A DNA stretch of 64,000 nucleotides from the NCBI GenBank assembly GCA_035495955.1, contig DATJFE010000070.1, positions 29,332 through 93,331 of the forward strand. Reading direction: 5' to 3'. The stretch comes from Vicinamibacterales bacterium (GTDB taxonomy: Bacteria; Acidobacteriota; Vicinamibacteria; Vicinamibacterales; 2-12-FULL-66-21). How positions within the stretch are numbered: the stretch's first letter is position 1; the number at the start of each line of letters is the position of its first letter. Positions 1 through 64,000 of the stretch are shown piece after piece. The position numbers and the translations under genes were made by a program. The notes under the pieces were generated by a model. That model was not told the DNA's origin, did not search any database, and was given only the letters and a program-made list of their open reading frames with translations.

Positions 1-87
1 GCCACATGATCGCGATCATGGACAGTAGGATTGCAGAATTGATGGGAAGTTCCAAGGGTCCGCGGAACCTCGAACTCCAGCAACGGC

Positions 88-5957: not shown

Positions 5958-6034
5958 CGTCAGTCTGAATACGCCACCGGACCGCCAGAGGTTTAGCGCA
6001 TAATCCGGGCCACACTATTGTCACAGGAGATGCG

Positions 6035-6817: not shown

Positions 6818-6824
6818 GACGCGC

Positions 6825-9975: not shown

Positions 9976-10016
9976 TACAACAAATATCTCGCCTCATGGC
10001 CGTGTGTCAACTGGAT

Positions 10017-10044
10017 CTTGGGCCTTGGGCCTTAGGCCTTGGGC
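10017..10044. repeat. Heptanucleotide tandem repeat (CTTGGGC x4; family GGCYTTG)
   Basis: Sequence reads cttgggc cttgggc cttaggc cttgggc. The array is intergenic, 8 nt beyond the stop of the C1 peptidase gene. Confidence 0.9.
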
Positions 10045-10052
10045 GTCTCCAC

Positions 10053-10829: not shown

Positions 10830-10911
10830 GCACCTGAATACGCATCGACCGCGCAACAGGTTCGCGGCGCCGCGCTGCGGAGACGGGTAGGTCGTGCACG
10901 AGATCGCCGCG

Positions 10912-13383: not shown

Positions 13384-13445
13384 ATGTGAAGGACGCTCCC
13401 GCGAGTCCTCCGTTAACCGCCTGGGAAAGGATATAGTCCCGCCAT

Positions 13446-13760
13446 ATGCCTGCGTTTGATTTCTGGTCGATGCTCTTCGTGTTCATGCTGGCGACGTTCG
13501 TCGGGTTTCAAGTGATCCAGAACGTCTCCCGCCTTCTGCACACCCCGCTGATGTCCCTGACGAACGCGATCTCGGCGATAGCCGTGGTCGGCTCGATCCT
13601 GATTGCCGGCGAGCGCGAGTCCGATCTCACGACGATCCTCGGCACCGTCGCCGTGGCGGCGTCGATGACGAATATCGTCAGCGGCTTTCTGATCACGGAT
13701 CGCATGCTCAAGATGTTCCGCGAGAAGCAGAGCGCGAAGACGGTCCGGAGCGCGCGATGA
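13446..13760 (+). CDS. pntAB: NAD(P) transhydrogenase subunit alpha, part 2 (membrane dII-alpha piece)
   Basis: 104 aa with three helices. LHTPLMSLTNAISAIAVVGS and NIVSGFLITDRMLKMF are typical of PntAB. Its stop overlaps the pntB start (ATGA). Confidence 0.85.
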   Translation: MPAFDFWSMLFVFMLATFVGFQVIQNVSRLLHTPLMSLTNAISAIAVVGSILIAGERESDLTTILGTVAVAASMTNIVSGFLITDRMLKMFREKQSAKTVRSAR

Positions 13761-15154
13761 ACGAGCATCTCATCCAGCTCAGCTACTTCGCCGCCGCCGT
13801 CCTCTTCATCATGTCGCTGCGGTGGCTGAACCATCCGCGCACGGCGCGCCGCGGCGTGCTCGCCGGCGTGCTCGGCATGACGATGGCGGTCGTCGGCACG
13901 CTGATGGCGCCGGAGATCGTCGACTACAAGTGGGTCGCCGCGGCGGTCGTGGTCGGGTTCGCAGTCGGGATTCCGCTGTCGTGGGTACCGCTGACGGCCG
14001 TCCCGGAACGGACCGCGCTGTCGCATGCGTTCGGCGGCCTTGCGGCCGGCCTGGTCGGCACGGCGAAATACATCATGTGGCGCCAGCAGTCGCAGTTGAC
14101 GACGTTCCGGACGTCCGCGATTGCGCTGGAGGTCATTCTGGGATTTCTGACGTTCACCGGCAGCCTCATGGCGGCCGGGAAGCTGCGCGAGATCATCCCG
14201 ACCCGGCCGATCACCTATCGCAATCAGAACCTGGTCAACCTGTCCCTGCTCGCGCTCGCCGTCGTCGCCGGCATCTATCTCGGCTTCGTCGATCACAACT
14301 ACTGGCAGGCGTACGCGGCGATCGTGGTGCTGTCGCTCATCTTCGGCGTCCTGCTGATCATCCCCATCGGCGGCGCGGACATGCCGACCGTCATCTCGCT
14401 CTTGAACTCATATGCCGGCCTGTCGGCGGTCGCGATGGGCTTCGTGCTCTCGAACAAGCTGCTGATCATCGCCGGCGCGCTCGACGGATCCTCGGGCTTC
14501 ATCCTGTCAGTCATCATGTGCAAGGCGATGAACCGGTCGTTCACGAACGTGCTGTTCGGCGCGTTCGGCCAGGTCCAGGCGAAGGCGGCGGCGGGCGAAG
14601 CGAAGACGGTCAAGAGCGCGACGCCGCAGGACGTCGCCGACATCATGACCGCCGCCGATCGCGTCGTCATCATCCCGGGCTACGGGATGGCGGTGGCGCA
14701 GGCGCAGCACCGCGTGCACGAGCTGTACGACCAGTTGACCAAGCGGGGGATCGACGTGAAGTTCGCCATCCATCCCGTCGCCGGCCGGATGCCCGGGCAC
14801 ATGAACGTCCTGCTCGCCGAGGCGGAGATCCCGTATGAGTCGCTGGTGGAGATGGACGACATCAATCCGGAGATGCCGCAGACCGACGTGTGCCTCGTCG
14901 TGGGGGCCAACGACGTCGTGAATCCGGCGGCGCGGCACGACAAGGGCAGCCCGATCTTCGGGATGCCGATCATCGACGCGGACAAGGCGAAGACGATCAT
15001 CGCGATCAAGCGCTCGATGAACCCCGGGTTCGCGGGAATCGACAACGAGCTGTACTACGACGACAAGACGCTGATGGCCTTCGGCGACGCGAAGCAGGTT
15101 CTCGGCGACGTCGTGAAGGCCGTCGCCGGCGAGGGATCGGCGACGGTGCACTGA
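13757..15154 (+). CDS. pntB: NAD(P) transhydrogenase subunit beta
   Basis: 465 aa. It has a multi-helix N-terminal half and a C-terminal dIII NADP(H) domain (VVIIPGYGMAVAQAQH...HPVAGRMPGHMNVLLAEA...GANDVVNPAA). Confidence 0.9.
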   Translation: MNEHLIQLSYFAAAVLFIMSLRWLNHPRTARRGVLAGVLGMTMAVVGTLMAPEIVDYKWVAAAVVVGFAVGIPLSWVPLTAVPERTALSHAFGGLAAGLVGTAKYIMWRQQSQLTTFRTSAIALEVILGFLTFTGSLMAAGKLREIIPTRPITYRNQNLVNLSLLALAVVAGIYLGFVDHNYWQAYAAIVVLSLIFGVLLIIPIGGADMPTVISLLNSYAGLSAVAMGFVLSNKLLIIAGALDGSSGFILSVIMCKAMNRSFTNVLFGAFGQVQAKAAAGEAKTVKSATPQDVADIMTAADRVVIIPGYGMAVAQAQHRVHELYDQLTKRGIDVKFAIHPVAGRMPGHMNVLLAEAEIPYESLVEMDDINPEMPQTDVCLVVGANDVVNPAARHDKGSPIFGMPIIDADKAKTIIAIKRSMNPGFAGIDNELYYDDKTLMAFGDAKQVLGDVVKAVAGEGSATVH

Positions 15155-20216: not shown

Positions 20217-21151
20217 TTCAGCGACTCCAGATAGGCGATGACGGCCTGCAGTTGCTCGTCACTCAAGCCTGGAACCGGCATCCGGTTCCCTGGCTTGACG
20301 TGCTGGGGATCGGCAATCCAGCCGCCGAGGTATCCGCGCGTATTGGGCAGCGTTCCCGCGGCGATCGTGCTGCGGGATCCGATGTGCGTCAGGTCGGGCG
20401 CGCTTCGCGCGCCGGCGAGTGTTCCCGTGATGTTGTGGCACATGGCGCACGGACCACGCTCCACCACCGCCTTGCCCCGCTCCTGTTCTGGCGTCGAGGG
20501 CGGCACAGCCGGTGCGCGATTCGCCGCGAGCCAGCGCTCGAAGGCGTCGGGCGCCTCGGCGACGACCACGAGCGCCATCTTCGCGTGCTGCAGCCCGCAA
20601 TATTCGGCGCACTGCCCCCGGTACACGCCGGCACGGTCTGCCTGGAGCCACAGCTCGTTCAACCGTCCGGGAATCAGATCGACTTTTCCCTGCAGGCTGG
20701 GAATCCAGAGACTGTGGATGACGTCGGTCGAGAGCAGATCGATGCGAACGGGCCGCCCGACAGGAAGATGGATTTCGTTCGCCGTGGTGACGTTCAGCGA
20801 CGGCAGGTCATTGACGTACTGCACATCCCACCACCACTGATTGGCGGTCACCTGCAGGTGCAGGGCGTCAGGCGTACGGATGGCGTCCTCGGCGCGGCCC
20901 GTGAGCACGCTTTCAAACAGGATCGCGATGAGCACGACCGCCGACAGAGCTCCGGCGACGGCGATGTTCGTTCCGAGCTGACGGTCGGTGGCACGCGATG
21001 CGGCACGCCGGCCGGTGCGAATGGCGATGAGCGCCGCCATCGCAACCGCGATCCAGACCGCCGCGCAGATCCCGAAAATGAGCCACCACAGATGGCTCGC
21101 GCGCGCCGCCTCGATTCCCGCCGGATGGATGACGGACTGAACGTGCGGCAT
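20213..21151 (-). CDS. ctaC: Cytochrome c oxidase subunit II with C-terminal cytochrome c domain (caa3 type)
   Basis: The start was chosen at MPHVQSVIHP (21151), where it overlaps the upstream stop (ATGA). The CuA motif is DVIHS...CAEYCGLQHAKM. The C-terminal heme c motif is CAMCH. Confidence 0.9.
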   Translation of the reverse strand: MPHVQSVIHPAGIEAARASHLWWLIFGICAAVWIAVAMAALIAIRTGRRAASRATDRQLGTNIAVAGALSAVVLIAILFESVLTGRAEDAIRTPDALHLQVTANQWWWDVQYVNDLPSLNVTTANEIHLPVGRPVRIDLLSTDVIHSLWIPSLQGKVDLIPGRLNELWLQADRAGVYRGQCAEYCGLQHAKMALVVVAEAPDAFERWLAANRAPAVPPSTPEQERGKAVVERGPCAMCHNITGTLAGARSAPDLTHIGSRSTIAAGTLPNTRGYLGGWIADPQHVKPGNRMPVPGLSDEQLQAVIAYLESLK

Positions 21152-21726
21152 CACCGGTGCCCCGTCTGGACGGGCACCAGCGGCGAACGCCGCGATTCCG
21201 GAGGACCCGTCGCCTGATCGTCGTTGCGGCCGGCCGCGTTGGTCGGCGCCACCTGGCCGGCCATCGACTGCACGTACGCCACCAGTTGCCAGATTTGCTG
21301 CGCCGGAATGTGCCCGCCGAACGACGGCATGCCGTCGGGGCGCCCCTGCGAGATCGTCGCGAAGATCTGATCCGGCTGGCTGCCGTAGATCCACTTCTCG
21401 TCCATCAGCGGCGGTCCGATCGCGCCGCCGCCGTTCGCGCCGTGGCACGGCGCACAGTTATACGCGCCGTACAGCCGCTTGCCTTCGCCGATGCCCCACG
21501 CATTGTCCTGATACGGACTCCTGACGGACGCATTCTGCTGCGGCGCACCCGGCTCGAGCTGGCCGACGCGCACCGCCGTCTCGCGATTCGCCGCCGCCGG
21601 CAGCTCCTGATACCGCCGCGCCTCCCGCTCGCACCCCGCGAGCAGAGCAAGTGCGGCCACCAAAACCAAAAGAGTCCGTGTCGTCCGTGGCCCCTTGATC
21701 CGTCTAGTCCGCGTGGTCCGCGGCAT
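21151..21726 (-). CDS. Monoheme c-type cytochrome lipoprotein (candidate electron carrier between the PQQ dehydrogenase and the oxidase)
   Basis: 191 aa with a lipobox (LLAGC). It has a single CAPCH and a distal Met context (GRPDGMPSFG). Confidence 0.8.
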   Translation of the reverse strand: MPRTTRTRRIKGPRTTRTLLVLVAALALLAGCEREARRYQELPAAANRETAVRVGQLEPGAPQQNASVRSPYQDNAWGIGEGKRLYGAYNCAPCHGANGGGAIGPPLMDEKWIYGSQPDQIFATISQGRPDGMPSFGGHIPAQQIWQLVAYVQSMAGQVAPTNAAGRNDDQATGPPESRRSPLVPVQTGHR

Positions 21727-52984: not shown

Positions 52985-53014
52985 TTGACCCTCGTCCCGG
53001 TTCGTGCATAGAAT
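52985..53014 (+). promoter_or_regulatory. Sigma-70-like promoter candidate (TTGACC-N18-TAGAAT) upstream of the ACIII-like operon
   Basis: The hexamers are read directly, about 135 nt upstream of the first gene. Confidence 0.35.
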
Positions 53015-53147: not shown

Positions 53148-53792
53148 TTGGCCCAGATCTTCCCGCCGTGGTGGAACAAGCTGCCGATCGCGGCCGCCAT
53201 CGCGGGCAGCCTCGGTCCGGCGCTCGCTGTCGCGGGGGTCTGGTACTATTTTTCGCCGTGGTACACGGACGTGGGCTACCGCCCCGTCCAGCCCGTCCCT
53301 TACAGTCATAGGCTCCACGTCGGCGAGCTCGGTCTCGATTGCCGCTATTGCCACGCCTCGGTCGAAACCTCCGCGGTCGCGAACATTCCGCCGACGCGGA
53401 CCTGCATGAACTGCCATCAGTTCGTGAAGAAGGACAGCGAGGCCCTCGCACCGATTCGGGCCAGCGCCCAGAGCGGCCGGCCGATGCGGTGGATTCGCGT
53501 CCACAAGCTTCCCGACTACGCCTATTTCACTCACAAGGCGCACGTAGCGGCCGGCATCGGCTGCGTCACCTGTCACGGCCGCATCGACGAAATGGAGACG
53601 GTCACGCAGATGACGCCTCTCAGCATGAGCTGGTGCCTCGACTGCCACCGCAACCCCGGTCCCAACAGGCGCCCCGTCTCGGAAGTCACGAACATGAAAT
53701 GGACGCCTCCCCGGGACGCCCAGGCGCGCGCCGCGCTCGATCGCGAGCGGCCCGTCAATCCGCCGACTGACTGTTCAGGGTGCCATCGGTGA
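53148..53792 (+). CDS. Pentaheme c-type cytochrome, Alternative Complex III ActA-like
   Basis: 214 aa. The TTG start follows an SD (ggag) and immediately follows an in-frame stop. It has an N-terminal anchor helix. Five CXXCH motifs are present (CRYCH, CMNCH, CVTCH, CLDCH, CSGCH). Confidence 0.85.
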   Translation: MAQIFPPWWNKLPIAAAIAGSLGPALAVAGVWYYFSPWYTDVGYRPVQPVPYSHRLHVGELGLDCRYCHASVETSAVANIPPTRTCMNCHQFVKKDSEALAPIRASAQSGRPMRWIRVHKLPDYAYFTHKAHVAAGIGCVTCHGRIDEMETVTQMTPLSMSWCLDCHRNPGPNRRPVSEVTNMKWTPPRDAQARAALDRERPVNPPTDCSGCHR

Positions 53793-56746
53793 GCCGAACC
53801 TACTGGCGAAGCCTCGCCCAGATCGAGGACCGTCCCGAATTCCGCGCCGCCCTCGAACGCGAGTTCCCCGAGGGCGCCTCCGAGCTGCCCGAAGGCATCA
53901 CGCGGCGCGAAATGATGATGCTCCTGGGCGCCTCGCTGTCGCTCGCCGGGCTCGCCGGGTGCCGCCGACCGGTCGAAGAGATTGTGCCGTTTGCCACCGC
54001 GCCCGAGGACATCGTCCCCGGGATCCCTCTTTACTACGCGACGACCATGCCGTTCCGCCGGAGCGCTTACGGTCTGATCGTCGAGAGCCACGAAGGACGG
54101 CCGACGAAGATCGAGGGAAACCCTTCGCATCCTTCGACGCTCGGGGCGTCGAGCTCCCTCGTGCAGGCGTCCGTGCTCGGTCTCTACGACCCCGACCGCT
54201 CGCAGTCGGTCATGCTGCGGGGGGCGCGAAAGGCCTGGAGCGATTTCGTCGCGGCGTGGGCACCGCTGGCCCAGGCTCACGCGGCTGACGGCGGCGCCGG
54301 TCTTGCGATTCTGTCGGAGTCGTTCTCGTCGCCGACGCTCGCACGGCTGGCCTCCGAGCTGCGCGCCCGCTATCCCCGGTTGCAGTGGGCGACCTACGAG
54401 GCCGTCAGCGACGAGAACCGCCTCGCGGGCCTGCGTTCGGCCACGGGGCGCGACGTCGATCTGATGCTCCGCTTCGATCGGGCGTCCGTCATCCTCGCGC
54501 TCGACGCCGACCCGCTTCTCGCAGACCCGGAGATGATCCGTCACGCGCGAGGTTTCGCGGCCGGAAGGCGCGCGGGGCCGTCCGGTGGCGTCATGAACCG
54601 CCTCTACGCGGTTGAAGGCGTCTATTCGCTGACGGGTGCGATGGCCGATCATCGGCTCCGCCTCGAGAGCCGGCAGATCGCTTCCTTCGTCGCGGCGCTT
54701 GCGGCGCGGATTGGCGTCTCCGGAGGCGCGAGCTCCGCGGGAACCGCCGTGCCGGGCGTCGATGCGCGTTGGATCGACGCCGTGGCCAAAGATCTTGCGG
54801 CGAACCGCGGCAAGGGACTGATCGTGGCCGGAGAGCGGCAGCCGCCCGCCGTCCACGCGGCGGTCTGCGCGCTGAACACGCATCTCGGCAACACGGGCAA
54901 GACGGTCAGCTACTACGAGACGAAGGACGCCGCGCTTCCAAGCTCCGGCTCGCTCGCCTCGCTCGTCTCCGCGATGAACGCGGGCACGATCAAGACGCTC
55001 GTCGTGCTGGGCGGCAATCCGGTCTTCGACGCGCCCGTCGACCTCGACTTCGCGTCGGCCATGGCGAAGATCCCCCATACGATCGCCCTCGGTCACGCGG
55101 TCGACGAAACCTCCGCCAGGGCGGAGTGGCACATCCCCCGCGCCCACTACCTCGAATCGTGGGGAGACGCGCGCGCCGTCGGCGGCACCCTCAGCATCGT
55201 CCAGCCGCTGATCCTCCCGCTGTTCGGCGGACGAAGCATCGTCGAAGTCCTGGGGCTGATGGTCGGCGGCCAGGATCGTCCCGGCTACGACGCCGTGCGG
55301 GACACCTGGAAGACGATCCTGGGCGAAGCCGACTTCGACAAGAAGTGGAACCGCGTCCTCAATGACGGAATCCTCGCCGGCAGCGAACTTCCGGAAGTCG
55401 TCCCAGGGAGTGCCGGGCAGCCGCAGGCAGAGCCTGCCCGAGCGTCGGGATCTCCGGACGATCTGGAGATCGTATTCCTCTCGTCACCGTCTCTTCACGA
55501 CGGCCGTTTCGCGAACAACGGATGGCTGCAGGAGCTTCCGGACCCCCTCACCAAGCTCACGTGGGACAACCCCGCGCAGATGAGCCCGAAGACCGCCGAG
55601 AAACTGGGCCTCGACAACGAAGACGTGGTCCGTATCGATTACGCGGGGCGTTCGCTCGAGATTCCGGTCTGGGTTCTTCCGGGAATGGCGGACGGCGTGG
55701 TCGCCCTGACGCTCGGCTACGGGCGTTCGCACGCGGGGCGGATCGGCTCGGGCGTCGGCTTCGACGCGTTCACGCTCCGAACCGCAAGGGCCCTGGGCTT
55801 CGACGACGGCGTCAGACTGACCAAGCTCGGACGCACGTATCCGCTCTCGGCGACCCAGCATCACGGCAGCATGGAAGGGCGGCCTCTGGTTCGCGAGTCG
55901 GCCCTGAACGAGCTTCGATCGGAATCGGCCGCGAAACGGGAAGCCGTGCCGGGCCCGCTCGGCGTCTTCGAGGAGGAGCCGCAACACTTCTCGCTCTTCA
56001 AGGAGCGTGTCTACGATCAGGGGCACCAGTGGGGGATGACGATCGATCTGAACGCGTGCATCGGGTGCAACGCGTGCATGGTCGCCTGCCAGAGCGAGAA
56101 CAACGTGCCGGTCGTCGGCAAGATCCAGGTCAGCAAGAGCCGCGAGATGCACTGGCTCCGTGTGGATCGGTACTTTTCCGGCGAGCCCTCCGGCAGTCCC
56201 GAGGTCGTCTTTCAGCCGATTCCCTGCATGCAGTGCGAGGACGCCCCGTGCGAGCAGGTCTGCCCGGTGGCCGCGACCGTTCACGACGCGCAGGGCCTCA
56301 ACGTGATGGTCTACAACCGGTGCATCGGAACGCGCTACTGCTCGAACAACTGTCCGTACAAGGTGCGCCACTTCAACTTCTTCAACTACACCAAGGACAC
56401 GCCCGACATTCTCAAGCTCGCGATGAACCCCGACGTGACGGTTCGCGCGAGGGGCGTCATGGAGAAGTGCACGTACTGCACGCAGCGGATCAATCGCGCG
56501 AAGATCGACGCGAAGCTGGCGGGCCGCGCGCTGCGTGACGGCGACGTCAAGACCGCCTGCCAGCAGGTTTGTCCCGCGTCGGCCATCGAGTTCGGCGATC
56601 TTCAGGACCGTTCGAGCCGGGTCGTCCAGGCGAAGGCCGATTCGCGCAACTACGCGCTCCTCGAGGAGCTGAACACCAAGCCGAGGACGACCTATCTGAC
56701 GAAGGTGCGCAACCCGAACCCCGATCTCAAGGGCCTGCCGGGATGA
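53780..56746 (+). CDS. ActB-like subunit: Tat-type molybdopterin-oxidoreductase fold fused to a 4-cluster Fe-S ferredoxin domain
   Basis: The N-terminus is YWRSLAQIEDRPEF...ITRREMMMLLGASLSLAG. The Cys clusters are CIGCNACMVAC, CMQCEDAPCEQVCP, CIGTRYCSNNCP and CTYC...CQQVCP. The GTG start is at 53780 or 53789, the latter forming GTGA with the actA-like stop. Confidence 0.9.
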   Translation: MPSVSRTYWRSLAQIEDRPEFRAALEREFPEGASELPEGITRREMMMLLGASLSLAGLAGCRRPVEEIVPFATAPEDIVPGIPLYYATTMPFRRSAYGLIVESHEGRPTKIEGNPSHPSTLGASSSLVQASVLGLYDPDRSQSVMLRGARKAWSDFVAAWAPLAQAHAADGGAGLAILSESFSSPTLARLASELRARYPRLQWATYEAVSDENRLAGLRSATGRDVDLMLRFDRASVILALDADPLLADPEMIRHARGFAAGRRAGPSGGVMNRLYAVEGVYSLTGAMADHRLRLESRQIASFVAALAARIGVSGGASSAGTAVPGVDARWIDAVAKDLAANRGKGLIVAGERQPPAVHAAVCALNTHLGNTGKTVSYYETKDAALPSSGSLASLVSAMNAGTIKTLVVLGGNPVFDAPVDLDFASAMAKIPHTIALGHAVDETSARAEWHIPRAHYLESWGDARAVGGTLSIVQPLILPLFGGRSIVEVLGLMVGGQDRPGYDAVRDTWKTILGEADFDKKWNRVLNDGILAGSELPEVVPGSAGQPQAEPARASGSPDDLEIVFLSSPSLHDGRFANNGWLQELPDPLTKLTWDNPAQMSPKTAEKLGLDNEDVVRIDYAGRSLEIPVWVLPGMADGVVALTLGYGRSHAGRIGSGVGFDAFTLRTARALGFDDGVRLTKLGRTYPLSATQHHGSMEGRPLVRESALNELRSESAAKREAVPGPLGVFEEEPQHFSLFKERVYDQGHQWGMTIDLNACIGCNACMVACQSENNVPVVGKIQVSKSREMHWLRVDRYFSGEPSGSPEVVFQPIPCMQCEDAPCEQVCPVAATVHDAQGLNVMVYNRCIGTRYCSNNCPYKVRHFNFFNYTKDTPDILKLAMNPDVTVRARGVMEKCTYCTQRINRAKIDAKLAGRALRDGDVKTACQQVCPASAIEFGDLQDRSSRVVQAKADSRNYALLEELNTKPRTTYLTKVRNPNPDLKGLPG

Positions 56747-57366
56747 CTCGCAGGCCTGGTGTGGTCGGCATCCTCGCGCTCACGGCCGTTGTGGGCCTCA
56801 CCGGCTGCGCGCGCGGCTGCACGTCGAGCCGTCCGCCCATCCATCCCAATCCGAGCATGGACGACCAGCCGAAAGTGCTCCCCCAGGCGGCCAGCACCTT
56901 CTTCTATGACGGCGCCGGCATGCGCGCGCCCGTTCCAGGGACGATCCCGATCGGCGGGCTGAAAGAGGATACGGCGTACTTCACGGGCAAGGGCGCGGAC
57001 GGACAATTCGTCGCCACGATCCCCGTGCCGGTAGACGATGCGCTCCGGGAGCGCGGACGACAGCGGTATTCGATTTATTGCCAGCCTTGCCACGACGCGC
57101 GTGGAGACGGCAAGGGGATCCTGTTCCAGCGCGGCAACGTTCCCACGGCCTCCTTCCACCAGGAGAAGATCCTGAAGTATCCGGACGGACAGATCTTCGA
57201 CGTCATTACGAATGGGACCGGGTTCATGTCCGGCTACCGCTGGCCGATCCCTCCCGCGGACAGGTGGGCGATCATCTCGTACGTGCGGGAGCTCGAGCGC
57301 AAGCGGCTCGCCAGCGCCTCCACCTCCGCTGAAGCGACGGCGGCCAAGCCCGCGGGGAACAAATGA
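56743..57366 (+). CDS. Monoheme cytochrome c lipoprotein, ActE-like
   Basis: The ATG overlaps the upstream stop (ATGA). It has a lipobox (LTGC) and a single CQPCH. DRWAIISYVRELE is typical of ActE as I recall it. Confidence 0.8.
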   Translation: MTRRPGVVGILALTAVVGLTGCARGCTSSRPPIHPNPSMDDQPKVLPQAASTFFYDGAGMRAPVPGTIPIGGLKEDTAYFTGKGADGQFVATIPVPVDDALRERGRQRYSIYCQPCHDARGDGKGILFQRGNVPTASFHQEKILKYPDGQIFDVITNGTGFMSGYRWPIPPADRWAIISYVRELERKRLASASTSAEATAAKPAGNK

Positions 57367-57376
57367 GGGTGGCATC

Positions 57377-59245
57377 GTGAGCAACGGCGTAATGGACGGC
57401 CGGATCAACCGGAAGGTGCTGTTCCTTCTGGGCCCCGTCGCCGGCATCGCGATGTTCCTCGGCGTCGTCTGGGCGGCGTCGCTCTTCGTGCGGCACTACG
57501 AATACAAGGAGCCGTACCGGGCGCCGGCGGCGGCGGCCGACGCCACGCCCCGCACGGAAGGCGTCGCCGCGGAGAAGGCGGACGCGGAGACCAAGGCGAA
57601 GGCGACGCCCTACGCCGAGGCTGAGTACCGCAGGTTCCCCGGCGTCGGAAGCCGCGTGGCGATCTGGTCGGTCGCGCAGCTTCACCTGCTGTTCGCCGCG
57701 TTCGTCCTTGCCGTGCCCATGTTCGCGTTCATCATCGAGGTGATCGGCTACAAGACCGGAGATCTCCGATACGACCGGCTCGCGCACGAGTTCACGAAGC
57801 TTCTCTCGGTGTCGTTCTCGCTCACCGCGACCTTCGGCGCGTTTCTGACCTTCATGCTCATCATCCTGTATCCGAAGTTCACGAACTACCTGATGAGCGT
57901 GTTCTCGCCGACGTTTCTTCCGTACGTCCTGCTCTTCTTCTTCGAGGCGTTCTTCCTCTACACGTATTACTACGGCTGGGGGAAGTTCCATCCGCTGGTG
58001 CATCTCGGCCTGGGGCTGGGACTGAACCTGGTGGGCACGGCGATCATGATGATCGCCAACGCCTGGCTCACGTTCATGACCTCGCCGCGCGGAATCTCGG
58101 ATCAGGGGGCGGTCATCTCCGTCTGGGACGCGATCAACAACTACACGTGGATGCCGATCAACGTCCACCGGTTCATCGCGAACATCGCGTTCGGCGGATC
58201 GGTGGCCGCCGCGTACGCGGCCTTCAAGTTCCTGCAGGCCGAGACCGACGAAGAGCGCGCGCACTACGACTGGATGGGATACATCGGCAACTTCGTGGCG
58301 ATCAGCGCCTTCCTGCCGCTGCCGTTCGCCGGCTACTGGCTCGCGAAGGAGATTTACGCCTTCTCGCAGACGCTGGGACTCACGCTGATGGGCGGCGCCT
58401 TCTCCTGGCTGTTCATCATCCAGGCCGTTCTGATCGGGAATCTCTTCCTCGCCGCCAACTACTACCTCTGGCTCGGGATGGGCCGCGTCGAGGGCGTGCA
58501 GCCGCTCCAGAAGTTCATCAAGTACCTGCTCTTCGCGATCACGCTCTGCTTCATGGTCTGGGCCACGCCGCGATCGATTATCGCCACCGTGTCCGAGCTG
58601 CGGGCGATGGGCGGAGGGGCGCACCCGGTTCTCGGCTACCTCGGCGTCATGTCCGCCAAGAACACCGCCGTGAACATCCTGATCCTGACGACGTTCATGA
58701 GCTTTCTTCTGTATCGACGGACGGGAAAAGTCGCGACCGTGTCGTGGGCGAAGACGGGCCACGCCGTGCAGCTCGCGATCTTCGCGGCCGCGGCCTTCGT
58801 CGTGATCTTCCTCGGCATCTACGGGTACTTCGTCGAGGCGACCGTCCGCATCCGCCTCTCGGTGCCGCAGGTCAGCTCCGTCCTCATCGCCATGATCTCG
58901 ATCACCATCGTCGACGTCTTTCTGTTTCACGGCGCGACGAGGACCGGCGAGGTGCGGTGGGGGCACATCCCGAGGGTCTCGCAGTACGTCCTGATCTTCA
59001 TCGCGGTCACGTTCACCTGGCTCATGGGGCTCATGGGCTACGTCAGGTCCGGCCTCCGTCAGCACTGGCACGTGTACGGCGTCATGCGGGATCGGTCGCC
59101 CGACGCGTTCACGCCCACCCTGGGCTTCGCGACGAAGGTCGTCTCGGTGACCGTCCTCATGTTCTTCCTCCTGATCGGGGTCGTGTTCTGGATCTCGAGC
59201 CTGCACGACAAGCCCGACTTCGAAAGGAGGACGGGGACGTCATGA
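57377..59245 (+). CDS. Cytochrome bd ubiquinol-oxidase subunit I (CydA)-like membrane protein, roughly 14 helices, no Q-loop
   Basis: Homology-like blocks to CydA are SVAQLHLLFAAF (His19 position), LLFFFEAFFLYTYYYGW (Glu99 position), IMMIANAWLTFMTSPRG and NVHRFIANIAFGG (His186 position). An extra N-terminal helix and about 5 extra C-terminal helices are present. The start is GTG 57377 or ATG 57392. Confidence 0.8.
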   Translation: MSNGVMDGRINRKVLFLLGPVAGIAMFLGVVWAASLFVRHYEYKEPYRAPAAAADATPRTEGVAAEKADAETKAKATPYAEAEYRRFPGVGSRVAIWSVAQLHLLFAAFVLAVPMFAFIIEVIGYKTGDLRYDRLAHEFTKLLSVSFSLTATFGAFLTFMLIILYPKFTNYLMSVFSPTFLPYVLLFFFEAFFLYTYYYGWGKFHPLVHLGLGLGLNLVGTAIMMIANAWLTFMTSPRGISDQGAVISVWDAINNYTWMPINVHRFIANIAFGGSVAAAYAAFKFLQAETDEERAHYDWMGYIGNFVAISAFLPLPFAGYWLAKEIYAFSQTLGLTLMGGAFSWLFIIQAVLIGNLFLAANYYLWLGMGRVEGVQPLQKFIKYLLFAITLCFMVWATPRSIIATVSELRAMGGGAHPVLGYLGVMSAKNTAVNILILTTFMSFLLYRRTGKVATVSWAKTGHAVQLAIFAAAAFVVIFLGIYGYFVEATVRIRLSVPQVSSVLIAMISITIVDVFLFHGATRTGEVRWGHIPRVSQYVLIFIAVTFTWLMGLMGYVRSGLRQHWHVYGVMRDRSPDAFTPTLGFATKVVSVTVLMFFLLIGVVFWISSLHDKPDFERRTGTS

Positions 59246-59808
59246 AGATCCCCCTCATCCTTCGCATCGGCGCCCTCGTCGTCGCGACGACCGGGTTCTA
59301 TACGTATGTCGGCCAGATGGTGCCGCAGAAGGAAGTGCAGCCTCCCGCCGAAATCGTCCTCAGAACGGATCTGACGACGGCGGACATGGTGAAGGTGGGC
59401 CGGGAGATCATGGAGGGCAAGGGGCTCTGCTTTACCTGCCACACGATAGGCAAGACCGGGGCGCTCCGGTTCCCGGATCTGGCGGGAGTCGATACTCGCG
59501 CGAAGACCCGCAAGCCGGGCTTCACTGACGTCCAGTACTTCGCCGAGACGCTGTACGAACCGAACGCTTTCATCGTGCCTGGCTTCAATCCGGGGATGCC
59601 GACCATCAACAAGCCTCCGATCGGCCTCACCGATCAGGAGATCCTCTGCGTCATCGCGTACCTGCAGACGCTGGGCGGCACACCGACGGTCACGCTCCAG
59701 ACGAAACACCAGTACAACGCCGGCACGGCGACCCCGACGACGCCATCCTCGGGCGTCTCGCCGGGTGGAGCGCAGCCTGAAGCGACAATCAAGAAAGAGA
59801 AAGGATGA
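59242..59808 (+). CDS. Membrane-anchored monoheme c-type cytochrome
   Basis: The ATG overlaps the upstream stop (ATGA), and an SD (aaggagga) precedes it. It has an N-terminal helix, a single CFTCH and a Pro/Thr-rich tail. Confidence 0.75.
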   Translation: MKIPLILRIGALVVATTGFYTYVGQMVPQKEVQPPAEIVLRTDLTTADMVKVGREIMEGKGLCFTCHTIGKTGALRFPDLAGVDTRAKTRKPGFTDVQYFAETLYEPNAFIVPGFNPGMPTINKPPIGLTDQEILCVIAYLQTLGGTPTVTLQTKHQYNAGTATPTTPSSGVSPGGAQPEATIKKEKG

Positions 59809-60623
59809 AGCTCCTCATCGTTCTCGTCGTGGCGGTCGTCTTCGCGGTGCTCCGCTTCATGCGGGTCAATCTGCTGATATGGGCTGGCGCATGGTGGATC
59901 GGCATCTACGTCCTCCTGCGATTCGGCTTCACGGCGCCGATTCCCTCGTCGGTCATCACGATCTACATGGGGATCGTCTCGCTCGCGATCCTGGCCTACG
60001 TATCGTCCAGCCAGCAACGCCGCGAGGAAGTCTCGGGTCCGCTCGTCCGGTTCATGACGGACAAGCGGTACACAGTGTTGCTTGCCGCGACCGTCGTCGC
60101 CATCCCGGCGATCGCGGCGGCCAACGTCTACGTGCGGATGAACGTTCCCATCGAGCCTCCGCTCTTCTCGCGGACCGTGCATCCCGCGTCGCCGGCGGAC
60201 GTCACGGTTCACGGCAAGCGGATCGATCTCGATGCCGGCGAAAACCCCTTCCGTCATCTCGAGACGTCGGATGCCCAGGAGTTCCGCAAACACGTCGAGA
60301 ACGGGCGCCGCGTCTACTACCAGAATTGCGTCTTCTGCCACGGCGACAACCTGGCCGGCAACGGCATGTTCGTCCACGGACTGGATCCGATTCCCACGAA
60401 TTTCAGCGACAAGGGCACGATCCCGATGCTTCGCGAGACCTTTCTGTTCTGGCGAATCTCGAAAGGAGGGCCCGGGCTGCCCGATGAAGGCGGGCCGTGG
60501 GACACGGCGATGCCGCCGTGGGAGAAGTTCCTGAAAGAGGACGAGATGTGGGACGCGATTCTCTTCCTCTACGACTTCACGGGGTCCAGGCCTCGCGCCA
60601 GGGAGGAGACCGCGGCGAAATGA
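59805..60623 (+). CDS. Four-helix membrane protein fused to a C-terminal monoheme cytochrome c domain
   Basis: The ATG overlaps the upstream stop (ATGA). It has four hydrophobic helices, then CVFCH and GGPWDTAMPPWEKFL. Confidence 0.75.
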   Translation: MKLLIVLVVAVVFAVLRFMRVNLLIWAGAWWIGIYVLLRFGFTAPIPSSVITIYMGIVSLAILAYVSSSQQRREEVSGPLVRFMTDKRYTVLLAATVVAIPAIAAANVYVRMNVPIEPPLFSRTVHPASPADVTVHGKRIDLDAGENPFRHLETSDAQEFRKHVENGRRVYYQNCVFCHGDNLAGNGMFVHGLDPIPTNFSDKGTIPMLRETFLFWRISKGGPGLPDEGGPWDTAMPPWEKFLKEDEMWDAILFLYDFTGSRPRAREETAAK

Positions 60624-62362
60624 GCTTCTCCCGGATAGGTTTGCGCGCGTGTCTCGCGGCCTTCATCGTCTGGGTGTGTGCCCTGCTGACAGGACTGACC
60701 GGATCGGTGCGCGCGGCGGCTCCCGACATCGGAACCGACGCGCAGCGAACGGCGGGCAAGACGCTCTACTTCAAGTACTGCTCGCAGTGCCACGGCGAGA
60801 AGGGTGACGGCGAAGGCTACGCCGCGCCGCATCTGCGTCCGCGGCCCCGCAACTTCACCGCGGGGAAGTTCAAGATCCGCACGACGCCCAACGGCGCGCT
60901 CCCGACCCATCAGGATCTCGTCAACATCATCAGGCGCGGCATGCCCTACACGTCGATGCCCGCCTGGTCCAATTTCTCCGACTCGGAAGTGTCGGACCTC
61001 GCGTACTTCCTGACGACCTTCTCGGCGGACTTCTCGGATCCCGAAAAAGTTCCGAAGCCCGTTTCGCTCCCGAGCGCGCCGAAATCGACGAAAGAGTCGA
61101 TCGAGCTGGGGAAAAAACTCTACGAGGAAAACGGCTGCGTGAAGTGCCACGGCACGCTCGGCCGGGGCGACGGACCGTCGGCGCCGACGCTGGTCGACGA
61201 GTGGGGGCATCCGATACGCCCGGCGGACCTCACGCAGCGCTGGACGTTCCGCGGAGGCTCGTCCCGCGAGGACATCTTCCGGACGATGAGCACGGGACTG
61301 AACGGCACGCCCATGCCGTCGTTCGCCGATGCGCTGAAGGACGATCAGCGATGGGCGATCACCAACTTCATCGATTCTCTCTCGAGCAGCAACGGTCCAG
61401 GCTATACGAATCTGGTGATCGCCAAGCACGTCGACGATCCGATCGATCTGTCCAAGGGGGCGGCGAACTTCGAATCCGCGCGGATCGCACGCTTTCCGAT
61501 CATCGGACAGATTACCGAGCCCGTCCGCGAGTTCCATCCTCCGGCGACGTCGGTGACGGTGCAGGCCGTCTACGATGCCGACTCGATCGCGCTGCTCGTG
61601 CGATGGCATGACATGAGCGCGCAGAAGACCGGGAAGAACGGACCCTCGCTGCCCGTGCCGCAGACGGAGGAGGAGGAACCGGCCGCCGCCGCCGGCCCGA
61701 CGTCGCAAAACCCCTTCGGCGAGGCGGAAGTCACGCCGACGCCGGCCGGGCAGCCGCCAGCCGGCGCCCAGCCGCCCGCGGCGAACCCGTTTGCCGAGGA
61801 GGCGGCGCCAACCGCCCCCCCGTCCGAGTTCTCCGACGCGGTGGCGATCCAGATTCCATCGCAGGTGCCGACAGGTGCCCGCAAGCCGTACTTCATCTTC
61901 GGCGATTCGCAGAACTCGGTGGATCTCTGGTTCTTCGATCTGGCGCGCCCGGCTCCCCTTCAGTTCACCGGGAAGGGAAGCGGCGACATCGCGCCGAACG
62001 ACACGGGGGATATCACCGGCGTCGCCAGCTACGACCAGGGAGAATGGTCGGTGATTTTCAAGCGGCCGCTGCGCGCCGGCTCGGGCGCCCCGCTCTCCTC
62101 CGGACAGTTCATGCCGATCGCGTTCTCGGTCTGGGATGGGCTCTCGCGCGAGCGCGGCAACCGGCGCGGTCTCTCGGTGTGGTACTCGCTCTACCTCGGG
62201 CCCGAAGAAGTGCCGTCGGTTGTCGGGCCGATGATCGAGACGGCGCTCGTCATTCTCGCCATCGAGCTGGCCGTCATCGGCTGGGTGCGGTGGCGCTACG
62301 GCTCTCGCGCGCGCAAAACGCTCGGCGGAGAACCGAGCGAACCGGCCCCCACGAGAGCATGA
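60620..62362 (+). CDS. Diheme cytochrome c fused to an EB_dh/DOMON-like heme-binding domain with C-terminal anchor helix
   Basis: The ATG overlaps the upstream stop (ATGA). It has CSQCH and CVKCH. The C-terminal half (SDAVAIQIP...VDLWFFD...WSVIFKRPL...PIAFSVWDGLSRERGNRRGLSVWYSLYL) resembles the ethylbenzene-dehydrogenase gamma-type domain, recalled from memory. Confidence 0.7.
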   Translation: MSFSRIGLRACLAAFIVWVCALLTGLTGSVRAAAPDIGTDAQRTAGKTLYFKYCSQCHGEKGDGEGYAAPHLRPRPRNFTAGKFKIRTTPNGALPTHQDLVNIIRRGMPYTSMPAWSNFSDSEVSDLAYFLTTFSADFSDPEKVPKPVSLPSAPKSTKESIELGKKLYEENGCVKCHGTLGRGDGPSAPTLVDEWGHPIRPADLTQRWTFRGGSSREDIFRTMSTGLNGTPMPSFADALKDDQRWAITNFIDSLSSSNGPGYTNLVIAKHVDDPIDLSKGAANFESARIARFPIIGQITEPVREFHPPATSVTVQAVYDADSIALLVRWHDMSAQKTGKNGPSLPVPQTEEEEPAAAAGPTSQNPFGEAEVTPTPAGQPPAGAQPPAANPFAEEAAPTAPPSEFSDAVAIQIPSQVPTGARKPYFIFGDSQNSVDLWFFDLARPAPLQFTGKGSGDIAPNDTGDITGVASYDQGEWSVIFKRPLRAGSGAPLSSGQFMPIAFSVWDGLSRERGNRRGLSVWYSLYLGPEEVPSVVGPMIETALVILAIELAVIGWVRWRYGSRARKTLGGEPSEPAPTRA

Positions 62363-62376
62363 AGGCGTGTAAACCC

Positions 62377-64000
62377 ATGTACAAGAGCATCTACGTTCCC
62401 GTCGATAACTCGGACCACTCCAACCGCGCCGTCGTCTGCGCCCTCGGACTGGGCAAGGCGTATTCGGCCAAACTGGTCGGCTGCCACGTCTACGCCGCAA
62501 AGCTGCACGACTATCGCTTCCGGCAGATGGAGTACACGCTGCCCGAGGAATACATCGACGAAGTGGAGCTGGAGCGGCAGCGGAAGATCCACGACAGCCT
62601 GATCACGATGGGGCTCAAGCTCATCTCCGACAGCTATCTCGACGGCATGTCGCGTCTGTGCGGGGAATCCGGGCTCGAATTCGAGCCGCGGATGATGGAT
62701 GGAAAACATCACACCGAGATCCTGAAGGACCTCGCCGGATCGCAGCACGACCTGGTCGTGATCGGCGCGCTCGGGATCGGCCGCGCCCGCGACAGCGTCA
62801 TCGGATCCGTGTGTGAACGCGTCGCCCGCCAGGCCGACCGCGACGTCTGGGTGGTCAAGCACGTGCCCGAGCCGGACGAGCCCGACCGCGACACGATTCT
62901 GGTCGGCGTCGACGGCAGTCCGCAGTCGTTCGGCGCGCTGATGACGGCGATCGATCTGGCGCGGACGTTCGGCAAGAAGGTCGAAACGATCGCCGTGTAC
63001 GATCCCTATCTCCACTACTCCGTCTTCAACGGCATCGTCAACGTCCTGACCGAGCAGGCGGCGAAGGTGTTCCGCTTCGAGGAGCAGAATCAGCTCCACG
63101 AAGAGATCATCGACACCGGACTCGCGCAGATCTACCAGTCGCATCTCGAGGTCAGCGAGAAGATGGCGAACGAGGCGGGCGTCGAAGTCAAGAAGACGCT
63201 CCTCGACGGCAAGCCCTTCCAGAAGATTCTCGACCACGCGCGCAAGACGAATCCCTGGCTCATCGTGCTGGGGCGGATCGGCGTCCACAGCCCGAAGAAC
63301 GAGACCGGGCTGGGCAGCAACGTCGAGAACATCCTTCGCGGGGCGCCATGCGACGTGCTCCTCTCCACGCGCATCGAAGTCCCGCGGCTCGACGTGCGCG
63401 CCGAGGAAACGGTCCGGTGGACCCCCGAGGCCGAGGCGCGGATGAAGAACGTGCCGGAGCAGGTCAAGGGGATCGCGCGCACCGGCGTGCTGCGGCTCGC
63501 GCTCGAAAAGGGGCACTCGGTGATCACGAGCGCCGTGATCGACGAAGCGATGGATCGGTTCATGCCGAAGAGCGCGTCGGCCGCCACCAAGGCGCTCGCC
63601 GAGGCCGTGGCGCTCGAACGCGCGAAGTCCGGCCCGGTGTCGATCTGCCGGTCGTGCGGCGTCGCCGCCACGCAGAGCGGGGCCGTCACGTGCACCGTGT
63701 GCGGGTCCACCGACTTCGACGTGATCTCGCAGGAGATGATCGAGAAGATCGCCGCCGTCGAGGGCGGGCTCGAGGAGGAGACGACCTACGACGGCCGGAA
63801 GCTGCGCTGGTCCGAGGAGGCGCGGAAGGGACTCTGGACGATGAAGAACGCGTACCAGCGGCGCCGCGTCAAGGCGCGCGTCGAGAAGCGCGCGCGCATG
63901 ATGAAGCTCGACGCGATCACGCTCGACTTCGCGCGACAGGTGATCGAGGAGGAGACCGGTGCGCCATTGGAGATCGCCGGAGGGGAGCGGGGCTTTGGGG
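62377..64000 (+). CDS. Tandem universal-stress-protein (Usp) domains fused to two PCP-reductase-like domains and a Cys4 ribbon (3' partial, runs off the window)
   Basis: My own translation gives MYKSIYVPVDNSDHS...VVIGALGIGR (Usp 1) and ILVGVDGSPQS...LIVLGRIGVHS (Usp 2). Then come VRWTPEAEARMKNVPEQVKGIARTGV, CRSCG-x13-CTVCG and LRWSEEARKGLWTMKNAYQRRRVKARVEK. The ORF is not in the supplied track because it has no stop inside the window. Confidence 0.75.
   Translation, partial: MYKSIYVPVDNSDHSNRAVVCALGLGKAYSAKLVGCHVYAAKLHDYRFRQMEYTLPEEYIDEVELERQRKIHDSLITMGLKLISDSYLDGMSRLCGESGLEFEPRMMDGKHHTEILKDLAGSQHDLVVIGALGIGRARDSVIGSVCERVARQADRDVWVVKHVPEPDEPDRDTILVGVDGSPQSFGALMTAIDLARTFGKKVETIAVYDPYLHYSVFNGIVNVLTEQAAKVFRFEEQNQLHEEIIDTGLAQIYQSHLEVSEKMANEAGVEVKKTLLDGKPFQKILDHARKTNPWLIVLGRIGVHSPKNETGLGSNVENILRGAPCDVLLSTRIEVPRLDVRAEETVRWTPEAEARMKNVPEQVKGIARTGVLRLALEKGHSVITSAVIDEAMDRFMPKSASAATKALAEAVALERAKSGPVSICRSCGVAATQSGAVTCTVCGSTDFDVISQEMIEKIAAVEGGLEEETTYDGRKLRWSEEARKGLWTMKNAYQRRRVKARVEKRARMMKLDAITLDFARQVIEEETGAPLEIAGGERGFG

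Follow-up and report, generated by a model that had tools for sequence, protein, structure and literature searches.

A 64,000-nucleotide stretch of DNA from a Vicinamibacterales bacterium (GenBank assembly GCA_035495955.1, contig DATJFE010000070.1, positions 29,332 to 93,331 of the forward strand), hereafter called the window and numbered from its first letter, carries an operon in which paralogues of three subunits of Alternative Complex III (ACIII) precede a gene for a membrane protein resembling CydA of cytochrome bd oxidases and three genes for c-type cytochromes. Seven open reading frames (ORFs), designated g1 to g7, follow one another in the same direction on the plus strand from 53148 to 62362, both in the ORF list and in our own translation, and from g1 to g7 they contain 5, 0, 1, 0, 1, 1 and 2 CXXCH motifs, ten in total. 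A preliminary description, made from the letters of the window alone, had reported these seven genes, the ten motifs, ATGA overlaps of 4 nucleotides (nt) at 56743, 59242, 59805 and 60620 and an overlap of 4 or 13 nt between g1 and g2, all of which were recovered. It had also ended the operon at 62362, which was too early: an eighth plus-strand gene, g8, begins with ATG 62359, shares an ATGA overlap with the stop codon of g7 and runs past the end of the window. The g1/g2 overlap comprises 13 nt if g2 starts at GTG 53780 and 4 nt if it starts at GTG 53789, while the spacing between g3 and g4 is 10 nt for a start at GTG 57377, which is preceded by GAGGGTGG, or 25 nt for ATG 57392.

The gene upstream of g1 encodes a major facilitator superfamily (MFS) transporter with no obvious respiratory role, and the 176 nt between the two form the sole sizeable intergenic gap of the region. 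This gap holds the only sigma-70-like match found between 52600 and 64000, where 0.9 would be expected by chance; its position is weakly consistent with the start of the operon. A convincing internal terminator was not found within the operon. The ATGA overlaps at five junctions and the g1/g2 overlap suggest that g1 to g8 form one transcription unit, an operon of at least eight genes. The GC content varies little over this stretch of genes (63-68%), and there is thus no sign of a recent insertion. The arrangement as such is far beyond chance, and its order recurs in dozens of species-level genomes. The source is a soil acidobacterium represented by a metagenome-assembled genome, and identical proteins are deposited at NCBI for g3 (HTM26585.1), g6 (HTM26588.1) and g7 (HTM26589.1). 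The features are collected in Table 1.

Table 1. Genes and sites of the operon (window numbering) and accessory gene regions of related loci (numbering of the respective locus, L). aa, amino acids; TM, transmembrane.
Feature	Position	Strand	Basis
Promoter-like site, TTGACC-18 nt-TAGAAT	52985..53014	+	sigma-70-like, in the MFS-g1 gap
g1, ActA paralogue, 214 aa	53148..53792	+	PDB, Pfam, NCBIfam, 5 CXXCH
g2, ActB paralogue, 988 or 985 aa	53780 or 53789..56746	+	PDB, TIGR04519
g3, ActE paralogue, 207 aa	56743..57366	+	PDB, LTGC lipobox, CXXCH
g4, OR-N2-type CydA-like subunit, 622 or 617 aa	57377 or 57392..59245	+	Pfam, fold, signature residues
g5, anchored monohaem cytochrome c, 188 aa	59242..59808	+	Pfam Cytochrom_C, CXXCH
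g6, 3-4 TM helices and C-terminal monohaem cytochrome c, 272 aa	59805..60623	+	Pfam, CXXCH, TM prediction
g7, dihaem cytochrome c, EB_dh-like domain and C-terminal TM helix, 580 aa, 'alt_NxrC_2' type	60620..62362	+	Pfam, PDB
g8, tandem Usp and PCP_red domain(s), cut by window end	62359..64000	+	domain matches, homologues
Accessory gene region, L001	17195-21468		
Accessory gene region, L052	14899-16203		
Accessory gene region, L038	14944-16224		
Accessory gene region, L074	6578-9224		
Accessory gene region, L073	338-1588		

The ActA, ActB and ActE paralogues

Sequence comparison identifies g1, g2 and g3 as homologues of ActA, ActB and ActE along their full length, and the copies encoded in this operon are designated ActA', ActB' and ActE'. 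The match of g1 to PDB chain 6f0k_A (E 6.6e-73) covers residues 1-213 and hence its full length; a TM segment is located at residues 14-32, and the protein also matches Cytochrome_C7 of Pfam and QrcA of NCBIfam. For g2, the ActB chains 8k9e_B, 6f0k_B and 6lod_B were retrieved with E values from 0 to 1e-284, and together with 6btm_B the four chains span 0 to 1e-162. The protein consists of a molybdopterin-like domain B1 fused to an Fe-S domain B2, carries a Tat-variant signal (TIGR04519) and matches QrcC of NCBIfam (1.3e-63). Read directly from the sequence, it contains three four-Cys motifs and one three-Cys motif (CIGTRYCSNNCP), a pattern that fits three [4Fe-4S] clusters and one [3Fe-4S] cluster, as seen in ActB (PMC5928083). 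The third protein, g3, aligns with 6f0k_E (E 1.6e-53), has an LTGC lipobox and a single CXXCH motif, and is 45% identical to the canonical ActE encoded at locus L027, which is described below. The initial reading of g1 as a pentahaem cytochrome and of g2 and g3 as ActB-like and ActE-like proteins is borne out by these matches to ACIII subunits.

ACIII of R. marinus is built from two modules, and ActA, ActB and ActE (with ActH) constitute its electron-transfer module (PMC5928083). The operon holds exactly this module: in comparison with the solved complexes (6F0K, 6BTM, 6LOD, 8K9E), it shares ActA, ActB, ActE, the five plus one c-haems and the Fe-S motifs, whereas ActD is absent, as are ActC and ActF with their NrfD/PsrC fold, quinol site and proton channels. 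Because the quinol-oxidising, ion-translocating module is missing, the operon does not encode an ACIII. The absence of ActC, ActD and ActF, which had been noted at the outset, held up in three kinds of search. Pfam gave no NrfD match in any of the eight proteins and no ActD match (PF11821) in the operon proteins, small profiles of ActC, ActD and ActF matched none of the eight proteins, and tblastn with ActC, ActD and ActF of L027 gave no match anywhere in the 64-kb window. The same ActD tests detected ActD in L027, L052, L054 and L057. Copies hidden elsewhere in the window were also considered, and the canonical set of L027 retrieved only its ActE counterpart, i.e. g3; the idea that g6 is ActD-like found no support in the profile search.

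A second point of comparison is the Qrc complex (QrcABCD) of sulfate reducers. The best NCBIfam matches of g1 and g2 are QrcA-like, QrcB-like and QrcC-like, and periplasmic redox domains are common to both systems, but the scores lie far below the equivalog cut-offs, the NrfD-like QrcD is absent, and the two proteins are much closer to ActA and ActB.

The CydA-like protein and its cytochrome partners

The sequence of g4 is recognizable as CydA-like only in part. Cyt_bd_oxida_I of Pfam (E 3.2e-24) aligns with residues 87-322 only, corresponding to profile positions 2-238 of 418, and the best PDB sequence match is mycobacterial CydA (E 2e-15), with alignments to CydA chains stopping at residue 277-322. 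An AlphaFold2 model (pLDDT 75, pTM 0.77, 15 long helices) and an alignment of 33 sequences were considered in addition. When the model was compared with the PDB by Foldseek, the top ten matches were all CydA (E 1.4e-8 to 2.2e-5) and comprised every match with E <= 0.001; CydB chains made up most of the matches ranking after them, and NrfD, PsrC or ActC chains were not among the 50 best. Since the top matches are all CydA and none of the latter folds appears, the predicted model indicates that g4 is CydA-like over its whole length. An NrfD/ActC-type protein, or one with an NrfD-like C-terminal half, was discarded, as only CydA and CydB reached useful fold scores. The fold search thus agrees with the preliminary description, which had called the 622-aa protein CydA-like rather than NrfD/ActC-type, and the roughly 14 helices given there compare with about 14-15 predicted TM helices. 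The same applies to the reported lack of CydB: neither Cyt_bd_oxida_II nor a second Cyt_bd_oxida_I was matched among the eight genes, a scan that did not extend to the rest of the window.

The bd superfamily has been split into the qOR, OR-C and OR-N families (Murali, Gennis & Hemp 2021, bioRxiv 10.1101/2021.01.16.426971), which confirms the earlier statement that bd-like families lacking a quinol site had been catalogued by phylogenomics. Proteins of the OR-N type retain the four helices holding the oxygen-reduction site, and the OR-N2 subfamily has 14 helices and no quinol site (10.1101/2021.01.16.426971). In Nitrospira numbering, the OR-N2 signature comprises H99, Y183, E190, Y197, Y199, H213, H269, M430/N434, S563 and W569 (Supplementary Table 6 of 10.1101/2021.01.16.426971). 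All corresponding residues are present in g4 at constant offsets (H98, Y178, E185, Y192, Y194, H204, H259, M420/N424, S553 and W559) and are invariant in 33 homologues, except for W559, which is replaced once by Tyr. By its helices, its signature residues, its operon context and the lack of a second CydA-like gene, g4 is on sequence grounds an OR-N2 protein. Public annotation names g4 homologues 'cytochrome bd/d ubiquinol oxidase subunit I', despite the absent quinol-binding loop (Q-loop).

In comparison with CydAB[X], g4 shares the CydA fold and keeps counterparts of E. coli His19, Glu107, His126, His186 and Met393, which are invariant in its homologues. In contrast, Tyr occupies the Glu99 position and Ser the Glu445 position, as tabulated for OR-N2, CydB is lacking, about five TM helices are added and the partners are of the c-type. 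A Q-loop cannot be aligned either, and the corresponding region of the model consists of TM helices, in agreement with PMC3578206.

The partner proteins g5 and g6 have one cytochrome c domain each and N-terminal membrane segments. In g7, Pfam detects two Cytochrom_C domains and EB_dh (PF09459, 57.3 bits against a cut-off of 33.3), while the match to TIGR03477 (2.4e-19) scores below its cut-off. The dihaem part aligns with PDB chain 6h5l_B (E 1.5e-57), the EB_dh part matches 2ivf_C and 7b04_C, and a C-terminal TM helix is predicted. In the pairwise and multiple alignments on which the ligand comparison rests, a Phe of g7 takes the place of Met108, a haem-b ligand of EbdC, and of the Met of NxrC, and an Arg that of the second EbdC ligand, Lys201 (window 61841-62100, residues about 408-493). 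The Met is also replaced in the examined Rhodothermales, Fibrobacteria and Myxococcota homologues but retained in those of Rokubacteria, NC10 and Nitrospirae. With the DMSO-reductase type II gamma subunits EbdC and NxrC, g7 has the EB_dh domain in common, but neither the Met/Lys pair nor adjacent type II alpha and beta subunits: genes of the NarG/NarH type are absent from the operon, where ActB' alone belongs to the CISM (complex iron-sulfur molybdoenzyme) type. In this clade, the EB_dh domain may be a docking scaffold instead of a cytochrome b. Weak tblastn matches to g5 and g7 (30-32% identity) occur elsewhere in the window, in cytochrome c-like stretches on the minus strand (20219-20476 and 21244-21492).

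As judged from their sequences, g4 to g7 are the known OR-N2 module, also described as 'bd-like_3 + two cytochromes c + alt_NxrC_2'. Common to both are the 14-TM CydA-like protein that lacks a Q-loop, a pair of anchored cytochromes c, and an EbdC/NxrC-like protein that has two haems and a TM helix. The module is apparently also the 'TO_1' cluster of Ca. Manganitrophus, where a single bd-like protein is encoded together with a pair of cytochromes c and a periplasmic cytochrome b (PMC9040806). Phylogenomic work describes it in Nitrospira, Nitrospina and anammox bacteria; it ranks among the most highly transcribed gene sets in Nitrospira and is conserved beside nitrite oxidoreductase (NXR) in Nitrospina and anammox bacteria, and its role has been called enigmatic (PMC6606698, PMC3578206). 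Two proposals compete in this literature, one in which the module anchors NXR or interacts with quinone for reverse electron flow, and one in which it reduces O2 (PMC6606698, PMC3578206). NXR is thus the reported neighbour of the module in nitrite oxidisers and anammox bacteria, whereas here, and in one acidobacterial clade only, it is preceded by ActA, ActB and ActE.

Gene fusions bear on the cohesion of g4 to g7. A g5-like cytochrome c is fused to the C-terminus of g4 in six homologues from several lineages (P0121, P0122, P0136, P0283, P0323 and P0327, the last being 83% identical to the window protein), and g6 and g7 form a single ORF in the NC10 loci L070, L071 and L074. Together with the synteny, these fusions indicate that the g4-g7 core behaves as one complex. 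A further fusion was set aside: in L013 (8408-10762), ActE' continues in frame into g4, with the C-terminus of ActE' and the first ~11 residues of g4 deleted. This was not taken as proof of contact: with the periplasmic ActE' placed before an in-to-out helix, the fusion could reflect faulty assembly or a pseudogene. Likewise, long ActA-ActB and ActE-g4 ORFs in L017, L025 and L029 are artefacts of crude ORF calling.

Distribution, genomic neighbours and accessory genes

A scan of one genome per species yielded at least 596 confirmed relatives, of which the best 80 loci were kept with up to 10 kb of flanking sequence on each side. All 80 derive from metagenome-assembled genomes (MAGs), and their gene content was determined by tblastn with the eight window proteins. 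The order g4-g5-g6-g7 is kept in every locus with enough downstream sequence. It is found in Acidobacteriota and, as a four-gene module without act genes, in Rhodothermales, Fibrobacteria, Myxococcota, Rokubacteria, NC10/Methylomirabilota, Nitrospinae, Nitrospirae (one MAG) and Gemmatimonadaceae. Of the 57 loci whose upstream sequence extends for 4.5 kb or more, 33 encode ActA, ActB and ActE directly upstream of g4, and so do five loci with shorter flanks. Apart from a few MAGs with implausible taxonomic labels, the loci with this trio all belong to Vicinamibacteria, Polarisedimenticolia or Thermoanaerobaculia, and none of the analysed loci from other phyla carries it upstream of g4. More than 7,800 close homologues of g4 were counted; the operon is real, ancient within its phylum and very common in soil metagenomes.

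Five loci labelled as cyanobacterium, Patescibacteria, delta proteobacterium, Thermodesulfobacteriota or Gemmatimonadaceae (L008, L009, L022, L032 and L041) carry a typical acidobacterial operon of ActA'B'E' and the bd-like module, with g4 proteins 69-89% identical to that of the window; mis-binning or mislabelling is likely. A Myxococcota MAG (L043) contains two head-to-head copies of the module (3949-8765 on the minus strand and 10001-14828 on the plus strand), of which the second shares only 29-48% identity with the proteins of the window.

In a neighbour-joining tree of g4 (p-distances), the ActABE-associated proteins form one clade, sister to a Rhodothermales/Fibrobacteria clade. Four loci nested within it lack the trio (L012, L016, L021 and L053), and in L016 and L021 unrelated genes lie upstream of g4, e.g. 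for a resistance-nodulation-division (RND) efflux system. This pattern fits a single acquisition followed by long vertical retention with occasional loss or relocation. At L027, a canonical ACIII segment (1-5054) is located directly upstream of ActA'-ActB'-ActE'-g4 in the same direction and consists of the C-terminus of ActB, ActC (Pfam NrfD 2e-15), ActD (PF11821, 6e-65), ActE and, in the ActF position, a 392-aa ORF with no Pfam match. The ActE' proteins of the operons are 40-51% identical to this canonical ActE. It is the only one of the 33 loci in which the trio has a canonical ACIII as neighbour. The presence of both sets side by side shows the trio to be a recruited paralogue and not a degraded ACIII.

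The preliminary description had suggested a modular swap. Two of its elements stand, namely the absence of ActC, ActD and ActF and the presence of a CydA-like protein, but a protein swapped into their slot is not the best description, as g4-g7 is a self-standing module that occurs without act genes in many groups. On the sequence data, the event is the recruitment of paralogous ActA, ActB and ActE in front of this module in one acidobacterial clade.

Related pairings are known. Genes for oxygen reductases are typically located downstream of ACIII operons (PMC5928083), and Nitrospirales genomes place OR-N5 bd-like oxidase genes after their actABCDE clusters (PMC12342949). The 'TO_3' cluster of Ca. 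Manganitrophus combines an ACIII with two bd-like proteins (PMC9040806). The operon studied here shares with them the position of ACIII-type genes directly upstream of bd-like genes, and by analogy this adjacency suggests a recurrent functional pairing. They differ in that ActC and ActD are kept there and two 10-TM proteins (OR-N5a and OR-N5b) are encoded, whereas the present operon lacks ActC, ActD and ActF, and its one OR-N2 protein, with 14 TM helices, is accompanied by c-type and EB_dh subunits. Canonical ACIII genes also occur within 10 kb upstream of the module in the Rhodothermales loci L052, L054 and L057; in L052, caa3 genes (COX2 and COX1) are confirmed between the two, and a divergent gene separates caa3 from the module.

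The bd-like family, its operon context and the ACIII/bd-like pairings are therefore already known. What is apparently new is that ActABE, without ActC, ActD and ActF, shares a translationally coupled operon with an OR-N2 module and a Usp-PCP_red gene. We found neither a solved structure of such a complex in the PDB nor, in the full-text literature searched, any account of a bd-like module joined to an ActABE set that lacks ActC, in line with the earlier statement that no complex of this composition had been purified.

The window portion of g8 contains two Usp domains and a PCP_red domain, and a full-length homologue of 743 aa (L051, 15059-17290) has the architecture Usp-Usp-PCP_red(x2) plus a zinc-ribbon-like stretch. 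In most acidobacterial loci such a gene comes directly after g7, whereas Rhodothermales and two NC10 loci have it at a distance of a few kb from the module. Downstream of g8, acidobacterial loci encode a GNAT-domain protein, then an Fe-S carrier of the Mrp/NUBPL type (MrpORP-like, 1e-43), and then a radical S-adenosylmethionine (SAM)/SPASM protein with a C-terminal PCP_red domain. In NCBIfam, this radical-SAM protein matches best to the haem b synthase AhbD (5e-88) and to NirJ2 (3e-82), in both cases below the equivalog cut-off. Its gene directly follows g7 in Rhodothermales, is near g4 in NC10 and adjoins g4 in a Gemmatimonadaceae locus. Within the 10-kb flanks, radical-SAM genes were found in 29 loci, Mrp genes in 32 and GNAT genes in 30; the Mrp-like and radical-SAM genes recur together near the module in Acidobacteriota, Rhodothermales and NC10, and the Gemmatimonadaceae locus has the radical-SAM gene alone. 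The B subunit of protochlorophyllide reductase has PCP_red as its C-terminal domain, and this suggests tetrapyrrole handling and a dedicated route of haem maturation. The downstream genes thus probably encode dedicated maturation factors for a haem cofactor, and the co-conserved haem-type radical-SAM gene suggests a cofactor that has so far escaped recognition. No paper combining radical-SAM/PCP_red accessory genes with a bd-like module was found in the full-text literature searched.

Proposed function and alternatives

We regard the composite identity of the operon, an ACIII electron-transfer module and an OR-N2 module in one unit, as highly probable. The parts and their cofactor motifs, a periplasmic orientation evident from signal, anchor and lipobox features, and the conserved linkage are observed directly, and g1 to g7 most likely form one membrane-bound complex, assembled from two pre-existing modules, in which all redox domains are periplasmic. 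As to its mechanism, the reading that we prefer, although its chances are somewhat short of even, is a charge-separating terminal reductase of the bd type that is fed by an ACIII-derived wire; here we infer assembly, donor, direction and substrate. Electrons would enter through the haem and Fe-S wire of ActA', ActB' and ActE' and through the c-haems of g5 to g7, with FeS4 of ActB' or ActE' handing them to g7, g5 or g6; we know of no established partner of FeS4 even in ACIII. From the c-haems they would reach the low-spin haem b that g4 would bind through His259 and Met420 close to its periplasmic side, and then the haem site at His98, where O2 or another small oxidant would be reduced. Protons would be drawn from the cytoplasm via the position of Glu185 (Glu107 in E. 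coli), and a membrane potential would be generated. Neither CydB nor a Q-loop would be needed, the latter being replaced by membrane helices. The route from the c-haems via haem b to His98 is the simplest path because of the g4-g5 fusions and the retained E. coli-type residues, i.e. the counterparts of the His19 haem ligand, of the haem b558 ligands (His186/Met393) and of Glu107 in the cytoplasmic proton path.

Several points weigh against such a terminal reductase. Contact between ActA'B'E' and g4-g7 is predicted from gene linkage, and the four acidobacterial loci without ActA'B'E' upstream imply that the trio is dispensable or encoded elsewhere. The b595 ligand Glu445 and Glu99 are not kept, so that the active site of g4 differs from that of a true bd oxidase, and in the EB_dh domain of g7 the Met and Lys that bind haem b in EbdC and NxrC are replaced. 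The Fe-S clusters of ActB-type proteins normally have quinol-level potentials and are paired with a quinone site. For ActB', such a site is not recognizable here, and the electron donor is the weak point of the proposal, which keeps alive both a coupling to quinone and a division into two machines. Moreover, orthologous modules are reported from strictly anaerobic anammox bacteria, where quinone interaction or reverse electron transport has been proposed and not O2 reduction (PMC3578206, PMC6606698).

The coupling to quinone is the strongest competitor, albeit an unlikely one. Here g4, perhaps with g6, would be the quinone-interacting partner of the ActB' Fe-S wire and a haem-containing substitute for ActC or QrcD, and the complex would work either as an ACIII-like menaquinol:periplasmic-acceptor oxidoreductase or, in reverse, as a Qrc-like cytochrome c:menaquinone reductase. 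Every characterised relative of ActB, QrcC, PsrB and NrfC serves a quinone site in a membrane partner (PMC8076601), the best NCBIfam scores of g1 and g2 are those of QrcA and QrcC, and the NXR-adjacent module has been proposed to interact with the quinone pool in an ACIII-like manner (PMC3578206, PMC6606698); its reported presence in anaerobic anammox bacteria argues against an exclusive role in O2 reduction. In contrast, g4 has no Q-loop and no known quinol-binding residues, all of which are absent according to the literature, and its Pfam and PDB alignments end at residue 322. The residues that are conserved belong to the haem/oxygen-reduction site and the cytoplasmic proton path, and an NrfD-like fold did not appear in the fold search.

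In a more radical version, which we consider doubtful, the haem-containing g4 would replace the cofactor-less NrfD-type partner of a CISM-type Fe-S protein and define a new class of respiratory complex. Its electrons would come from quinone or from a periplasmic donor of low potential, and a single assembly would pass them over Fe-S clusters and ten c-haems to a bd-type site. If so, this complex would merge the roles of 'complex III' and 'complex IV' without NrfD, Rieske/b or haem-copper parts, and its g4 site might carry a modified haem made by the AhbD/NirJ-like radical-SAM enzyme.

Comparably doubtful is the possibility that one transcript encodes two machines. ActA'B'E' would then sit as a head on ActC, ActD and ActF encoded elsewhere, and this ACIII isoform would feed a separate OR-N2 oxidase via ActE', in a super-operon or supercomplex analogous to ACIII-caa3. 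As a rule, ACIII and oxidase genes form such super-operons, in Acidobacteria as well as in other groups (PMC8407424, PMC5928083), as in the Nitrospirales pairing of actABCDE with OR-N5 (PMC12342949), and both the co-directional ActB-ActC-ActD-ActE-ActF set of L027 and the ACIII genes of the three Rhodothermales loci, with caa3 in between in L052, fit this arrangement. On the other hand, a canonical ACIII is within reach in just one of the 33 ActA'B'E' loci and is not found in the 64-kb window, the identity of ActE' to ActE of L027 is low enough that the interfaces may have diverged, and a head encoded apart from its membrane arm is unusual for such complexes.

A function outside energy-conserving O2 respiration, such as detoxification or reduction of nitric oxide (NO), peroxide or other reactive species, or a periplasmic multihaem conduit to extracellular or insoluble acceptors, is improbable, even though ten c-haems and four Fe-S clusters are a long wire for a simple oxidase, Thermoanaerobaculia include metal reducers, and nitrogen-cycle specialists carry the module, among them NC10, Nitrospinae and Nitrospirae in the present sample and, as the literature reports, anammox bacteria. 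Canonical bd oxidases do have NO- and peroxide-related roles (PMC8407424), but neither outer-membrane porin-cytochrome genes nor NO-reductase signatures were found in the neighbourhoods examined, and the module is extremely common in aerobic soil Vicinamibacteria, to which the number of close homologues attests.

Since 2010, two roles have been debated for the bd-like (OR-N) module, that of a missing terminal oxidase and that of a membrane link for nitrite oxidoreductase. To our knowledge, its function has never been measured and no such complex has been purified. The coupling to ActABE is unexpected and makes this question more tractable. As the module pairs with NxrAB in nitrite oxidisers and with ActB in the lineages described here, it appears to be a general-purpose membrane unit for periplasmic Fe-S proteins, which narrows its possible roles. 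The carriers identified here are heterotrophic lineages, possibly easier to grow than nitrite oxidisers, and could serve as a source for purification. Acidobacteriota are among the most abundant soil bacteria. Because g4 homologues are annotated as quinol oxidases but have no quinol loop, the high-affinity quinol oxidases inferred for Vicinamibacteria on this basis may have been assigned wrongly.

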